From Clostridia bacterium (GTDB taxonomy: Bacteria > Bacillota > Clostridia > TANB77 > RGIG9151), in assembly GCA_017450465.1 (NCBI GenBank), contig JAFSUW010000022.1, positions 30,410-62,409 on the forward strand: a stretch of 32,000 nt of DNA, written 5' to 3'. A program made the position numbers and the translations under genes. Shown in pieces: positions 3,200 to 28,469 of the stretch. The notes under the pieces were generated by a model that did not search any database, was not told the DNA's origin, and worked only from the letters and a program-made list of their open reading frames with translations. Within the stretch, counting starts at the first letter, position 1; every line of letters starts with the position of its first letter.

Positions 3200-3215
3200 C
3201 ACCCGTTATTTTTTT
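3185..3215. terminator. Bidirectional intrinsic terminator shared by convergent genes
   Basis: AAAAATAACGGGT-aac-ACCCGTTATTTTT: perfect stem with an A-run on one side and a T-run on the other. It overlaps both stop codons (3197-3199 plus strand, 3206-3208 minus strand). Confidence 0.75.
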
Positions 3216-4489
3216 ATGCCATAAAGTGAAGATAAAACTTCAAAATTCGTCCTAAAGTAATTTGTTATTGTCCAAAAACTTACTCCTCCTAAATCATATT
3301 TATTTACTAATCGTAACCTTGCCTCTATGCTTCTTGCATCATCAAACCATACTATATGTAACTTTCCATTTTTATCATAATAATTAAAATATGGTGCTTG
3401 AGCTTTAGAATCATATTTTATTTCCGCCCCTACATCTATTGCAAGATTTACCGCCGCTATGTTAGATAGACTCCTTGCTACTGTTCCTTGCCTATATGGC
3501 AAAGTCCAATCATAACCATAATTAGGCATTCCCATAAGTATTTTAAGAGGCGGAATTCTTGTTACTGCATATTTTAACACTTGCTCTACTCTATTTATTG
3601 GTGCTACCGCTTGTGGCTCACCTCTACTATATCCCCATTCATAAGTCATTAAAACAACAAAATCGGCAAGGGTTCCATGAAATGCATAATCATGTGCTTC
3701 ATATAATAAGCCCTGTTGATTATCACTTATTTTAGGTGCTAGTGCAGTTGATATAGTATAACCCTGTGGCTTAAAACGTTCTACTACTTTTCTTAGAAAG
3801 TTATTATAATTTTCTTTATCTGATGGATAGATATATTCAAAATCTATATTAATTCCAGAATATCCTTTACTTTTTAAGAGATATTCAATATTTCCAAGTA
3901 AAGTATCCTGTACTTCTTCACTATTCAGTATTAAACTTACCAATTCACTATTAAAGCCACCACTTTCACCTATATTAGTTATAACCATAAATGGCAAAGT
4001 GTTTTCCGCTCTTGCCATTCTTATTATATTTTCATCATTAATAGGTACAAGTAATCCATTTTCACGCACTTCATAACTAAACACACTTAAGAAAGATAAA
4101 TAGCTAAGTGACATCTTTAACGTGTTCATATTTATACTTGGAAATGCATAACCATTAACATATATATTTTTTAAAACCTCATTATTTTTAGGGACTATTA
4201 TTTTTTGTCCTGGATAAATTCTTCCTGGGTTTTTTATATCTGGATTAACCGCAAGAATTTGCGACACACTTATATTATATCTTCTTGCTATTCTATATAA
4301 ATTTTCACCATTTTTTATTACATATGTTATATATTCTGCCGGTATAATAAGAGTTTGCCCAATGGTAAGCTTACTTGCATCCTTAAGCTGGTTTATATCT
4401 ATTATTTTTTCTTCAGGTACATTATACCTATTTGCTAATTTATATACCGTATCATTTCTTATTACTTTATGTATAAACAAATAAATCAC
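3206..4489 (-). CDS. sleL: Spore cortex-lytic N-acetylglucosaminidase-like protein, two LysM domains plus GH18 domain (YaaH/SleL type)
   Basis: 427 aa. Two N-terminal LysM repeats (TVYKLANRYNV...GQTLIIP and NLYRIARRYNI...GQKIIVP). GH18 catalytic motif GINIDFEYI. Long stretches matching my memory of B. subtilis YaaH (YEAHDY, DFVVLMTYEWGYS, PQAV.PI, YGYDWTLPY, AQAPYF, VWFDDARSI). The annotated GTG start may instead be the TTG three codons downstream. Confidence 0.85.
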   Translation of the reverse strand: MIYLFIHKVIRNDTVYKLANRYNVPEEKIIDINQLKDASKLTIGQTLIIPAEYITYVIKNGENLYRIARRYNISVSQILAVNPDIKNPGRIYPGQKIIVPKNNEVLKNIYVNGYAFPSINMNTLKMSLSYLSFLSVFSYEVRENGLLVPINDENIIRMARAENTLPFMVITNIGESGGFNSELVSLILNSEEVQDTLLGNIEYLLKSKGYSGINIDFEYIYPSDKENYNNFLRKVVERFKPQGYTISTALAPKISDNQQGLLYEAHDYAFHGTLADFVVLMTYEWGYSRGEPQAVAPINRVEQVLKYAVTRIPPLKILMGMPNYGYDWTLPYRQGTVARSLSNIAAVNLAIDVGAEIKYDSKAQAPYFNYYDKNGKLHIVWFDDARSIEARLRLVNKYDLGGVSFWTITNYFRTNFEVLSSLYGIKK

Positions 4490-4544
4490 ATCCTTTTATA
4501 ACAAATATATGTCTTGTGATTTATTTTCATAACAAATTTTAAAC

Positions 4545-4584
4545 AAAAAAAATGGCGCGGCCTCCATGTTTTCGGTGCCACGCC
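4545..4584 (-). terminator. Intrinsic terminator ending the large ncRNA
   Basis: Sense: GGCGUGGC-A-CC-gaaaacau-GG-AG-GCCGCGCC, an 8-bp GC stem with one G-U plus a 2-bp extension, followed by A-UUUUUUUU. Confidence 0.8.
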
Positions 4585-5207
4585 TTTATATGTTCGATAA
4601 GCCAATGCGCCTTTGACCTACCGCTTTATAAGTTCCAATACTGCCGATTCTCCGTCTTGAACTTTCAACTTGATGGATATTTCCCCTCTTTAATAGCACA
4701 CCACTCGGGCCGGCTTTACCCGGAACACTTCGGCGTTACTTCACAAGACCCTCGACGCGCCACCTCTTCGACTGACCTGGCACGTTTTAAGCACCACGCC
4801 CTTCGCGGGGGGTATGACACCTCGCTTTCCCTTAGCACACTTCCCGCCTCGCCCTACGCTTTGGCGTTCCTGCACCACTGGAATAGCCCTGCTACTATAT
4901 CGCTATCTTCAAGGACAAACACGTCCTGCCTGGACTTCCACCTACCACATCGCACATAACTTAGCCGCTATCTATCACGTCTCATGCTCTTGCACTGTAC
5001 TCTCGCGTCGCTGCTACTCCATATGTTTCGTCCACAACGCTCGCACCTTGTGCTCCAGCACTCACTCGTGCCAAACAGCTTTCCAAGCTACCTTCGCTTT
5101 TCGTGCTACAACATCGCCCCGCTACTCCATATGTTTCGTCAAGGGTTCATTAGCACTCACGGTAAGTTTCTTTTCCAGCCCCTCCCTCTTCGGGAAGGAT
5201 ATCAACT

Positions 5208-5241
5208 AAAAAGCTCTGCTTCGGGAAACCAAAGCAGAGCT
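5208..5241 (-). terminator. Riboswitch expression-platform terminator (internal to the large transcript)
   Basis: Sense: AGCUCUGCUU-ugguuucccg-AAGCAGAGCU, a perfect 10-bp stem, followed by UUUU. The left arm and loop (GCUUUGGUUU) are complementary to aptamer segment AAACCAAGC, giving an alternative antiterminator pairing. Confidence 0.65.
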
Positions 5242-5257
5242 AAAAATTCAACTCACT

Positions 5258-5346
5258 TTCTTCGGCAACCCGGCTTCCATAGTCTTTCGACTTTAGGACC
5301 GATGGCTTTGTGCCCCAAGCTTTCGCTTGGTTTACCATTTCGGAAC
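5258..5346 (-). promoter_or_regulatory. c-di-GMP-I (GEMM-I) riboswitch aptamer
   Basis: Sense: GGUAAACC-AAGC-GAAA-GCUU-GGGGCACAAAGCC-AUCGG-UCCUAAAG-UC-GAAA-GA-CUAUGGAAGCCGGGUUGCCGAAG. It aligns block by block with V. cholerae Vc2 as I remember it: GGCAAACC-AUUC-GAAA-GAGU-GGGACGCAAAGCC-UCCGG-CCUAAACC...GGUAGGUAGCGGGGUUACCGAUGG. P1 hairpin carries a GAAA tetraloop. P2 carries the CCUAAAG/UAUGG tetraloop-receptor halves. Confidence 0.85.
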
Positions 5347-5356
5347 TTACAAATAT

Positions 5357-5386
5357 ATTATATCATTTATTAACATAAAAAGTCAA
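5357..5386 (-). promoter_or_regulatory. Sigma-A promoter of the riboswitch/large ncRNA transcript
   Basis: Sense: TTGACT-18 nt-TATAAT with an extended -10 (TGATATAAT). The predicted start is near G at 5350. Confidence 0.7.
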
Positions 5387-5419
5387 TACTTTTTTGAAAT
5401 TTTTTTTACTTTTTTTATT

Positions 5420-6037
5420 TTACTCCTCTTTCGCATAATTATCCGGTATTTCAAACAGTTTTTCATCAACTTCATTTGTGCATTTTACTACCTCAAAAAT
5501 ATTTTCTTTTATTTCAAGATACTCAAATGCTCCATCATAAATGTTGTAATAAAATCTTATTATATCATCATCTTTTTTTATTTCTTCATAACTATACTGT
5601 GCACCCATTATTTCTGCTAAACCACTTTCAAAATCACTATAATTCATATCTGCTATTGATTTATCAAATAGTATAAAATCATTTGAATAATCCATGTCTT
5701 CGTTTAATTTATATGTTTTGTTATCATGGTAGATAGTATAAAACTTACCATCTTTTTTTAATGTTCCTACAGAAAGTAACCCATCTACCCTTGTGTAAAT
5801 ATCTTCACCATTCTTGGCATATGTCATATTTATTTTTTCAAGACCATTTGCTATATCTTCAATTAAAGCAAGTTCCACTAAAAATGGTTTATCTGCATTT
5901 ATTTTTGTTTGATATAAAGTTATTGTTTTCCTTTGTGTAACCTCATGTGGTGACACATCTGGTTTTAATATTAAAAGTAATGCTACTATTATAATTATTA
6001 CAATTATAGTAATAAATCTTTTTCGCTTTTTATTCAT
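5420..6037 (-). CDS. Hypothetical membrane-anchored or secreted protein
   Basis: 205 aa. Basic N-terminus (MNKKRKRF) followed by a single hydrophobic helix, then a soluble Y/D/K-rich domain. GGAGGAATA RBS upstream. No family recognised. Confidence 0.5.
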   Translation of the reverse strand: MNKKRKRFITIIVIIIIVALLLILKPDVSPHEVTQRKTITLYQTKINADKPFLVELALIEDIANGLEKINMTYAKNGEDIYTRVDGLLSVGTLKKDGKFYTIYHDNKTYKLNEDMDYSNDFILFDKSIADMNYSDFESGLAEIMGAQYSYEEIKKDDDIIRFYYNIYDGAFEYLEIKENIFEVVKCTNEVDEKLFEIPDNYAKEE

Positions 6038-27032: not shown

Positions 27033-27061
27033 AAAAAAGAACCAACTACTTAGTTGGTTCT
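27033..27061 (-). terminator. Intrinsic terminator after hicB (overlaps its last codons)
   Basis: Sense: AGAACCAACU-aagu-AGUUGGUUCU, a perfect 10-bp stem, followed by UUUUUC. Confidence 0.8.
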
Positions 27062-27456
27062 GATACATTTAAATACTCTTTTAATGCTGCTTGCAATATT
27101 TTAGAGAAATTAACATTATTTTCTTCTGCTATTTTATTCAACCATTGCGGAATTGTTAAAGTCTTTTTAACGGATTGCTCCTCTACTTCCATTCTAACTA
27201 ATGGCATCCATGTTTTTATAAGCAAAACTTTTTCATTCTTTTGACAACATACATCTTCCAATTTCGTAGGTTTAGGGATTTTTTCGTTATCCTCTTCTAA
27301 ATTATACATCCACAATCCTAAAACCTCTTCAGCGTTTTTTAACGCTTCTTCAGTAGTTTGTGCTTCAGACAAACATCCTGGTAAATCAGGAAAACTTATT
27401 GAAATTCCATCGTCTGCATAATTAAAAATAGCAGGATAAACATATGCGTTTTTCAT
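27046..27456 (-). CDS. hicB: HicB family antitoxin
   Basis: N-terminal HicB fold signature (YPAIFNYADDGISISFPDLPGCLSEAQTTEEALKNAEEVL). C-terminal ribbon-helix-helix-like DNA-binding tail (TLTIPQWLNKIAEENNVNFSKILQAALKEYL). Confidence 0.85.
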   Translation of the reverse strand: MKNAYVYPAIFNYADDGISISFPDLPGCLSEAQTTEEALKNAEEVLGLWMYNLEEDNEKIPKPTKLEDVCCQKNEKVLLIKTWMPLVRMEVEEQSVKKTLTIPQWLNKIAEENNVNFSKILQAALKEYLNVSEPTK

Positions 27457-27779: not shown

Positions 27780-28469
27780 TTATTCTTTATATCCATAAAA
27801 ATTATGCGGTGCTATGTAGTCAATTTTTCTTAATGCTCTTTCAAACCATCCTTTACCTGGTGCTGTTGGTGTGCAAAAATAAAGTGCATCTTCACCAATT
27901 ATTCTGCTACCATTAAGTGCATCAGCAACTACTTTTTTTGTTGTTTCACTTACTTTAATTGTGTAATATCTTCCATCACTTATAGGACTAAATTGCTTTG
28001 GTGCAAATATAACTTCTTTTAATGTATTTGGAAATCTTGAACTTTGCACACGATTTAGTACTACATTTGCAACTGCAAGTCGTCCATTATAGTCGGAACC
28101 ACCTGCTTCTGCTTCTACTATTCTTTCAAATATTTCAACTTCCTCTTCTGTGAGACTAAGATTAATTTCTTCATAATATATACTTTTGGTTTCCCTTGGT
28201 GTATCAATACCACTTCTTGATGTCACTACTTGTTTCTTTGGTGCTTGTGCACTATGTTCTTTAATAACTTTTACTTCAGTTTCTTCAGTAAAATCTTCAG
28301 ATAACTCTTCTTCGCTACTCATTGCAAGTTTTACTGATTTTTCAATAACAAATTTTTGAGGTACTTTAACTTCAAAAAATAATGAGTGTATTAAAGCCGT
28401 TAAAAATAGTGCGACAAATGCTACGATTATTGCTAGTTCTCTTTTTAAAATAACTATCCCTCCTCGCAT
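27780..28469 (-). CDS. Cell wall hydrolase, SleB/CwlJ catalytic-domain family, membrane-anchored
   Basis: N-terminal TM helix. C-terminal Hydrolase_2 motifs (RIVEAEAGGSDYNGRLAVANVVLNRVQSSRFPNTLKEVIFAPKQFS). Confidence 0.8.
   Translation of the reverse strand: MRGGIVILKRELAIIVAFVALFLTALIHSLFFEVKVPQKFVIEKSVKLAMSSEEELSEDFTEETEVKVIKEHSAQAPKKQVVTSRSGIDTPRETKSIYYEEINLSLTEEEVEIFERIVEAEAGGSDYNGRLAVANVVLNRVQSSRFPNTLKEVIFAPKQFSPISDGRYYTIKVSETTKKVVADALNGSRIIGEDALYFCTPTAPGKGWFERALRKIDYIAPHNFYGYKE

Follow-up and report, generated by a model that had tools for sequence, protein, structure and literature searches.

A c-di-GMP-I riboswitch heads a large, structured non-coding RNA unit in a Clostridia bacterium

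The transcription unit and its riboswitch

The DNA analysed here is a 32-kb window on a contig of a Clostridia bacterium, and the element in question occupies its minus strand between positions 5386 and 4545, next to a gene for a LysM/GH18 protein. This stretch is a discrete promoter-to-terminator unit for a non-coding, highly structured RNA. The 5′ ~145 nucleotides (nt) are a known riboswitch for cyclic di-GMP of class I (c-di-GMP-I) with its terminator, and the remaining ~660 nt constitute a candidate new RNA family. Two further lineages carry the unit, one represented by the metagenome sequence L023 and the other by L006 and L032, which are 99.6% identical to each other. All features of the unit are on the minus strand, with coordinates given in the direction of transcription where two dots separate them.

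Upstream, a sigma-70-type promoter (5386..5357) consists of TTGACT, an 18-nt spacer and the extended −10 element TGaTATAAT, matching at 11 of 12 positions with an upstream TG, and is the top-scoring site within 3 kb; transcription would start at about 5350. The promoter is kept in L023, where the −35 box is identical and is accompanied by TGCTATAAT, and in L032 (TTGCTT ... TGATATAAT). At the other end, the intrinsic terminator T2 (4584..4545; −17.9 kcal/mol) forms the RNA 3′ end through an 8-base-pair (bp) G+C stem, GGCGUGGC...GCCGCGCC, followed by U8. T2 escapes a simple terminator scan because its loop exceeds 8 nt. One U-G pair of T2 becomes U-A in L023, and in L006 a terminator is still formed from a wholly different sequence.

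Promoter and T2 enclose about 800 nt, as a preliminary description of this DNA had proposed. Its remarks on composition and coding capacity also hold: the core (4545-5207) has 51.9% G+C (G 34%, C 18%) against 29.7% in the flanks, with values of 0.47-0.60 over 4600-5300 and 0.19-0.38 in the surroundings, and the sense strand contains no open reading frame (ORF) of at least 60 amino acids (aa), the two longest being 40 and 45 aa. The G-rich, C-poor composition would help a long untranslated transcript escape Rho. The minimum free energy (MFE) of the sense RNA is −298.1 kcal/mol, compared with −250.3 ± 8.1 for dinucleotide shuffles (z −5.9), while the antisense strand reaches −202.2 (z −2.2). This sense advantage of about 96 kcal/mol is due to G-U pairs, on which the fold depends, and the structure therefore belongs to the minus strand. 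All six helices listed in the preliminary description are found in the sequence.

Infernal cmscan with the 4227 families of Rfam identifies a full-length aptamer of the c-di-GMP-I riboswitch (RF01051) at 5346..5261, the 5′ end of the RNA; it scores 78.7 bits, where the gathering score is 35, with E 4e-14, and covers model positions 1-87 of 87. When the whole 32-kb window is searched at gathering score, this aptamer is the sole match, and it recurs in L006, L023 and L032 at 76-78 bits. It contains the hairpins CCAAGC-GAAA-GCUUGG, with a GAAA tetraloop, and AGUC-GAAA-GACU, together with a receptor-like internal loop, CCUAAAG...CUAUGG, aligned with the Rfam consensus, into which the tetraloop would dock. 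By the same alignment, equivalents of G20 and C92 appear to be present, with AUGGU in place of AaGGC and UUGCCGAA in place of cUgCCgaa, the numbering being transferred from Vc2 of Vibrio cholerae. G20 and C92 contact the ligand, C92 pairing with one of its guanines; a G rather than an A at position 20 separates sensors of c-di-GMP from those of cyclic GMP-AMP (cGAMP), and formation of P1a is required for stable binding (PMC11705072). The local P1 helix is poor, since only about three pairs (UUC/GAA) are possible between the 5′ and 3′ flanks, which instead complement a distal 3′ domain. The two hairpins had been listed in the preliminary description, which overlooked the aptamer to which they belong, the terminator T1 and an exact 20-nt repeat, both treated below.

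Directly after the aptamer lies T1 (5241..5208; −21.5 kcal/mol), an intrinsic terminator with a 13-bp stem, a UUUC loop and U5 that serves as the expression platform of the riboswitch. In L006 two G-C pairs of its stem are replaced by A-U through compensatory changes. The 3′ tail of the aptamer, UUGCCGAAGA, nearly copies the 3′ arm of T1, UUCCCGAAGC (direct-repeat family D4). In the MFE folds of nascent transcripts of 132-140 nt, the tail GCCGAAG pairs with the T1 5′ arm CUUUGGU, forming an antiterminator, and once T1 is fully transcribed the best fold becomes aptamer plus T1. This alternative pairing of tail and T1 is the classical layout of an OFF switch, and the modelled folds suggest that the riboswitch follows OFF logic.

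The preliminary description had named a significant full-length Rfam match as an outcome that would make the RNA a known one. The RF01051 match is significant in that sense but accounts for only about 11% of the transcript. The rest of the RNA, ~660 nt, matches no Rfam family at E≤10 across the 4227 families, whether searched as window 4400-5500, as L006 1-1100 or as isolated arms. Weak matches (PyrG_leader, L10_leader, IMES-2, mir-259 and others) fall on the terminator or are noise. The assignment to no class made in the preliminary description thus fails for the 5′ ~145 nt and stands for the remainder. Its separation of the RNA from OLE, GOLLD, ROOL, RNase P, tmRNA and group I and II introns also stands and extends to HEARO and raiA, cmscan giving nothing at E≤10 for any of them: the models of OLE, GOLLD, ROOL, raiA and HEARO are without a match in 4400-5500 and L006 1-1100, as is Intron_gpI in the window region and L006. 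Literature searches found no description of this RNA.

Architecture and conservation of the RNA

Identical copies of the RNA occur in several metagenome assemblies (L001-L005 and L033). L023, obtained by a pattern scan of metagenomes, is 84.0% identical over the whole unit from promoter to T2. In L006 and L032 the RNA is about 1030 nt long, differing in length from that of the window by about 215 nt, and the GH18 gene that it precedes shares 67% identity with that of the window; alignment with the window RNA is confined to the 5′ ~160 nt, the 3′ domain and short motifs. L032 was reached through a protein search with the antisense ORF of L006. Common to the three lineages are the riboswitch, T1, hairpin H1, the tipped arms, the hairpin AGGAC-GUGUUU-GUCCU, the 3′ domain, hairpin H3 and the final terminator. 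The preliminary suggestion of a possible new class of large RNA therefore survives, now as a riboswitch-gated RNA, for the ~660 nt, which recur in two other lineages with structure-preserving changes, on the thin basis of three variants.

The family is rare, as a double-motif scan of 185,579 species-representative genomes yielded no true member and one false positive. The latter, in Fibrobacter intestinalis NZ_FUWU01000014.1 (L016 3500-4260), is the reverse strand of a highly repetitive, partly N-masked protein gene and is unrelated. Among the nine matches of the metagenome scan, L023 is the one true homologue, and the others are coding sequences or simple repeats. L033 matches the window exactly over 1844 nt and diverges over 1845-1974, where its GH18 protein is cut to 108 aa, probably through an assembly end or a chimera and not as a real variant.

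Following T1, the RNA body is organized as a series of hairpins and two larger domains. Hairpin H1 (5198..5181), CCUUCC-cgaaga-GGGAGG, is preserved by compensatory changes, reading CUCCCC/GGGGAG in L023 and UUUCUCC/GGAGAAA in L006. Domain 1 (5167..4940), delineated by predicted folding and comparison, is closed by ACUUACCG paired with UGGUAGGU, a helix in which one C-G pair has become U-A by compensatory change and several other changes are one-sided, and holds both arms that end in loop-E hairpins. The second of these, arm 2 (5091..4956), is a long irregular stem of about 135 nt capped by loop-E hairpin 2, whose changed pairs are kept in the consensus fold of window and L023. Next comes the hairpin AGGAC-GUGUUU-GUCCU (4927..4912), the sequence and loop of which are kept in all three lineages. 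Domain 2 (4906..4692), defined by predicted folding and alignment, is multi-branched and rich in GNRA loops; its blocks 4845-4866 and 4694-4751 are 100% identical between window and L023, and it has no detectable, alignable counterpart in L006. Within it, the hairpin GGGCGUGGUGCUUAAAACGUG (4781-4803) resembles the 5′ half of T2, GGCGUGGCACCGAAAACAUG (4565-4587), at 74% identity over 23 nt, which may be the trace of an internal duplication. Hairpin H3 (4623..4595), CGGUAGG...CUUAUCG, shows C↔U exchanges on its 3′ strand in L023 and L006 that keep G-C or G-U pairs. The arms between the conserved elements vary in number, length and sequence, and those of window and L006 cannot be aligned.

The ends of the long arms carry a 20-nt tip hairpin, GACGAAAC-NNNN-GGAGUAGC, set on a flanking helix. 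Loop-E hairpin 1 (GACGAAAC-AUAU-GGAGUAGC with its flanking helix) spans 5145..5117, with the motif at 5140..5121 (45 bits, covariance model R1), and loop-E hairpin 2 spans 5039..5006, with the motif at 5032..5013 (49.8 bits, model R1); the two motif copies are exact 20-nt repeats. Window and L023 have two tips each and L006 has four, giving eight copies in three lineages, and the 16 specified bases of the motif are invariant in 8 of 8. The flanking helix covaries, for instance CGUUGU/GCGACG, GUCAU/GUGAC, AAUCAU/GUGGUU and CCGU/ACGG; it is paired in 81.9% against 70.6% after shuffling, and its covariation score of 0.361 against 0.179 is reached by 2 of 500 shuffles. The motif can be read as a loop-E (bulged-G) module with a 4-nt closing loop, the putative pairs being C3-G19, G4·A18, A5·U17, A6·A15, A7·G14 and C8-G13 and G16 bulged. 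Model R1 finds no copy beyond the eight in 57 kb.

Other readings of the tip fit less well. A K-turn would place tandem G-A pairs after a 3-nt bulge, and these are absent, while a loop-E module accommodates AGUA opposite GAA. GACGAAAC resembles part of the hammerhead core, but CUGAUGA is absent and there is no Rfam match. UAUGG in the hairpin loop, taken as a receptor for a GAAA tetraloop, is not conserved in L006, and the AUG of a potential mini-ORF, AUG-GAG-UAG, is not conserved. Tandem Repeats Finder detects no ToxI-like array of a type III toxin-antitoxin system in the RNA; the two motif copies sit in dissimilar arms at a distance of 108 nt, and the downstream gene encodes LysM/GH18 or is absent.

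Near its 3′ end the RNA contains a domain (4674..4625) comprising the segments c′ (4653-4666), b′ (4640-4647) and a′ (4625-4636), complementary to three strands around the aptamer. Window and L023 have the same sequence here, to which that of L006 is about 80% identical. Strand a (5353..5342), the RNA 5′ end (UUU)GUAAGUUCC, pairs with a′ as inverted repeat I4, 9 of 9 pairs being kept in all sequences, and by alignment to Vc2 numbering would correspond to the 5′ strand of P1a. Strand b (5269..5262) is the aptamer 3′ tail GUUGCCGA, which includes the putative C92 equivalent and has either the T1 5′ arm or b′ as partner. Strand c (5255..5242), UGAGUUGAAUUUUU, is the linker between aptamer and T1 and pairs with c′, to which its segment GAGUUGAAUUUUU is complementary, its three one-sided changes keeping the pairs. 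Helices a, b and c are predicted in each of the three homologues folded separately, with probabilities mostly >0.9 (0.88-1.0 for a-a′). The 28 clamp pairs are 98.8% paired across the lineages, compared with 28-55% when the partner is slid, and all five one-sided changes in these helices preserve pairing. An alternative pairing of a″ with a is not conserved. Part of strand a′, GAACUUAUAAAG (4624-4635), is directly repeated as GAACAUAUAAAG (4584-4595), immediately before T2; this second copy is kept in L023 and not in L006, and could in principle pair with the RNA 5′ end as well.

Because helix b covers the putative ligand-pairing nucleotide, the closed full-length form is probably ligand-free, the clamp occluding the ligand site if it forms. 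The finished RNA might thus be locked without ligand, or rising c-di-GMP could pry the clamp open.

Conservation between window and L023 is patchy, with blocks of 22-58 nt at 100% alternating with variable stretches. When the structure is predicted from the window sequence alone and the substitutions of L023 are mapped onto it, 34 changed pairs still form, 8 of them with both partners substituted, and 18 are lost. Pairing survives 26 of the 42 single-sided changes, where the substitution spectrum of unpaired columns would predict 12.7. The consensus fold of window and L023 has 215 pairs and none broken, a figure biased towards structure.

A very improbable reading denies the RNA any function, taking the stretch as the relic of a decayed gene or mobile element, or as a plus-strand protein gene, with an orphan riboswitch. 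Besides the rarity of the family, it draws on plus-strand ORFs of 129, 131 and 135 aa and on gene calls in the metagenome assemblies, two of these ORFs being called as genes in L033 and one of 141 aa in L006. The alignment with L023, however, contains 23 gap openings, most of a length not divisible by three, that break the plus-strand frames, and open frames are conserved on neither strand. The L006 ‘protein’ has no homologue other than itself among 5.8 billion proteins, and the genes flanking the RNA have consecutive NCBI accessions (MBQ7668599 and MBQ7668600), so that no protein is annotated between them. The folding advantage of the sense strand also opposes this reading, as do the identity to L023 above that of the neighbouring gene and the retention of promoter, both terminators and hairpins.

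Relation to the GH18 gene and possible functions

In the window and in L006/L032, the LysM/GH18 gene is directly downstream of the RNA and co-oriented with it. In L023, similarity begins just upstream of the −35 box, ends at T2 and resumes in a convergent DUF1622 gene, which follows T2 after a second hairpin. The whole LysM/GH18 gene is absent (window 3206-4545 against L023 1000-1020), a presence/absence difference of about 1.3 kb. The DUF1622 gene of L023 is 79.9% identical to the window's, and 67.5% at third codon positions, compared with 84.0% for the RNA, which is thus maintained with nothing downstream to regulate. Conversely, seven GH18 homologues of 59-66% identity have upstream regions of 58-249 nt lacking both the RNA and a c-di-GMP riboswitch, and of the GH18 homologue contigs examined, those of L006 and the window's own strain alone have the RNA. 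In all three lineages the riboswitch and the RNA are found together; since the seven GH18 relatives lack both, the riboswitch travels with the RNA and not with GH18. The RNA is a unit independent of the downstream gene.

A CATATA box resembling a −10 element is found about 20 nt before the GH18 ribosome-binding site in the window (about 4505-4511, minus strand) and in L006 (about 1080-1090), and also in L007 (about 480-490), a relative without the RNA unit. This shared box suggests that GH18 has its own promoter downstream of T2, perhaps of a sporulation type. The start of the LysM/GH18 gene itself is ambiguous (4480-4489, minus strand): the NCBI protein has 427 aa from a GTG at 4489, and metagenome gene calls (424 aa, P0001) use a TTG at 4480, 8 nt or so after the ribosome-binding site AAAGGATG.

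Taken together, the evidence favours, at a probability of roughly 0.6, an OFF switch for c-di-GMP that controls a modular, stand-alone non-coding RNA; this RNA would belong to a new family and would probably serve as a platform for multivalent binding. In this mechanism a strong, housekeeping-type promoter would fire, and the c-di-GMP aptamer would form from the first ~90 nt. When c-di-GMP is high, the tail GCCGAAG would stay with the aptamer, allowing T1 to form and leaving only the ~145-nt RNA. At low c-di-GMP the tail would pair with the T1 5′ arm CUUUGGU, and the polymerase would continue for ~660 nt to T2. In the finished 0.8-kb RNA, the colinear helices a, b and c would let the 3′ domain clamp the RNA 5′ end as well as the aptamer on both sides, and the arms would display two (window) to four (L006) loop-E tips along with the GGAC-GUGUUU-GUCC hairpin. 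At low c-di-GMP the RNA could then act as a scaffold or sponge, its partner being most likely a protein. Such a role is favoured because conserved tips in variable number on poorly conserved stems point to a multivalent binding RNA more than to a ribozyme-like core, and by analogy with EutX/Rli55, discussed below. A more specific version is tentative: a new class of modular RNA of 0.8-1 kb, both made and shaped under c-di-GMP control as an allosteric scaffold. The distal 3′ domain would capture the P1 strands, the ligand-bound and closed forms would be mutually exclusive, and the two to four loop-E hairpins would be shown to the partner only at low c-di-GMP.

Several points weigh against the gated binding platform. 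The three sequence variants, all from uncultured Clostridia of the ruminant-gut type, make the covariation statistics weak, and the long-range helices show only one-sided, wobble-type changes, with no double compensatory change. The poor local P1 helix, at about 3 bp, leaves the co-transcriptional behaviour of the aptamer uncertain, and the OFF logic is based on thermodynamic folding at nascent lengths. The analysis yielded no candidate partner protein or target, and since no further copy of the hairpin appears in 57 kb, there is no visible ‘regulon’ for a sponge to mimic. In the two lineages carrying GH18, T2 read-through into that gene is possible.

A globular or self-assembling fold is an unlikely competitor of the sponge. 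The riboswitch would then gate an RNA with a defined global fold, structural, self-assembling or catalytic like ROOL, GOLLD or OLE, in which the tips and GNRA loops make tertiary contacts. The very low folding energy agrees with this, as do the many GNRA tetraloops and loop-E modules, typical elements of tertiary contacts, the pairing of the 5′ and 3′ ends seen in many large RNAs and the long blocks at 100% between window and L023; large ornate RNAs do form homo-oligomers (PMC12286853). A shared global architecture is nevertheless difficult to reconcile with two arm copies in one lineage and four in another, or with the length difference between lineages. Domain 2, lacking a counterpart in L006, is unlike a conserved catalytic or cage core, and there is no similarity to any such family. 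Slightly less likely still is a giant cis-acting 5′ leader of 0.8 kb for LysM/GH18 (YaaH/SleL-like), with T1 and T2 both regulatory and the central domain sensing a second signal. The position and orientation of GH18 in the window and L006/L032 suit a leader, c-di-GMP-I riboswitches normally act in cis, and Bc1 provides a documented case of a long expression platform with two terminators (PMC11218506). Yet L023 keeps the RNA under purifying selection without a co-oriented downstream gene, T2 is strong with U8 in all lineages, and the single candidate for a T2 antiterminator, UGGCGCG × CGCGCCA, is weakened by a change in L023, so that no conserved one was found. Those GH18 relatives that lack the RNA also lack the riboswitch, while having the same −10-like box and ribosome-binding site.

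Set beside known systems, the unit as a whole resembles a riboswitch-gated non-coding RNA. Riboswitches for c-di-GMP are known as switches of adjacent protein-coding genes. The window shares with c-di-GMP-I members (GEMM-I, RF01051; Vc2 of V. cholerae and OFF-type members in Clostridia) the full-length 86-nt aptamer with a terminator directly after it; unlike them, it has a ~660-nt structured non-coding RNA with its own terminator in place of the adjacent ORF, and a very weak P1 of which both strands complement a domain 700 nt downstream. The proposed logic is that of EutX/Rli55 of Enterococcus and Listeria, a non-coding RNA gated by an adenosylcobalamin (AdoCbl) riboswitch that sequesters the ANTAR regulator EutV. 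There, as is proposed for the window, a 5′ riboswitch and terminator decide on a longer RNA with its own terminator; that RNA carries partner sites, for which the repeated hairpin is a candidate in the window. The window RNA is ORF-less. It differs in its ligand class, is three to four times larger, and has in place of the ANTAR-type two-hairpin site a loop-E hairpin repeated in two to four copies. CsrB/RsmZ-type sponges similarly present hairpins with conserved tips in variable number on poorly conserved stems, although the repeated element here is a 20-nt loop-E hairpin rather than a GGA loop and has only two to four copies.

In Clostridioides difficile, a c-di-GMP-II aptamer is fused to an allosteric group I ribozyme, as reportedly described by Lee et al. 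in Science in 2010. This fusion also joins a c-di-GMP aptamer to a large RNA in a member of the Clostridia and pairs the aptamer flanks with downstream RNA; in the window the aptamer is of class I, a terminator separates it from the RNA, and there is no group I signature at E≤10. Bc1 of the Bacillus cereus group, a leader of downstream genes, has a long expression platform with two terminators 28 bp apart (PMC11218506). Both systems thus have a c-di-GMP-I aptamer followed by two intrinsic terminators, but those of the window are about 625 nt apart (T1 end 5208, T2 start 4584), with conserved structured RNA between them, and one lineage (L023) has no downstream gene. A precedent for a c-di-GMP-I aptamer within a non-coding RNA controlling its abundance is given by the Vc2-dependent upstream small RNAs of V. 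cholerae, which carry the aptamer at the 3′ end and act through RNA stability (bioRxiv 10.1101/617340); in the window the aptamer comes first, at the 5′ end, with a terminator after it. With OLE, GOLLD, ROOL, raiA and HEARO the RNA has in common a length of 0.6-1 kb, a G+C-rich island within the A+T-rich genome of a Firmicute, densely packed helices and GNRA loops, and with ROOL a gut or rumen origin. It departs from them in its riboswitch fusion, its modularity, its variable arm number, the lack of a model match and its context.

If the allosteric-scaffold version is true, this would be the first c-di-GMP-controlled trans-acting large RNA, in the germination-gene neighbourhood of spore-forming gut Clostridia. 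A c-di-GMP switch on a self-contained structured RNA of 0.7 kb would bring a large trans-acting RNA under second-messenger signalling, and the few large bacterial RNAs without an assigned function would gain a new family. The rarity of the family limits its generality, but it would still be a clean natural example of a riboswitch combined with a large RNA. The OFF terminator, the 3′ domain clamping the P1 strands and the ligand-contact nucleotide, and the variable number of identical tips offer testable handles.

Chromosomal neighbourhood

The neighbours of the RNA are ordinary chromosomal genes, in a metagenome-assembled genome whose NCBI proteins include MBQ7668597-604. They include a gerA-type germination receptor, DUF1622, LysM/GH18, Hsp20, diaminopimelate (DAP) dehydrogenase and resistance-nodulation-division (RND) efflux genes, and further DivIVA, SepF, MiaA, NusB and MutS2. 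The characteristic context is oapA/ybzG for OLE and a prophage or tRNA neighbourhood for GOLLD and ROOL. The preliminary description saw no oapA, prophage or tRNA here, and the germination, cell-division and housekeeping neighbours bear this out: no tRNA and no mobile-element gene is found in the 32-kb window, blastn against 50,697 phage and 72,556 plasmid records gives no match, and scans of viral contigs return chance single matches or nothing.

Directly upstream of the RNA unit is the gene for a 205-aa ‘hypothetical’ protein without a Pfam domain, MBQ7668600.1 (5420-6037, minus strand). The upstream neighbour differs by lineage, L032 having genes for a MamF/MmsF-like protein and DNA polymerase III alpha. 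Farther away, a HicB-like antitoxin gene (27046-27456, minus strand) has no obvious HicA partner among ORFs of at least 110 aa. Near it lies a germination-related gene for a SleB-type cell-wall hydrolase (27780-28469, minus strand).

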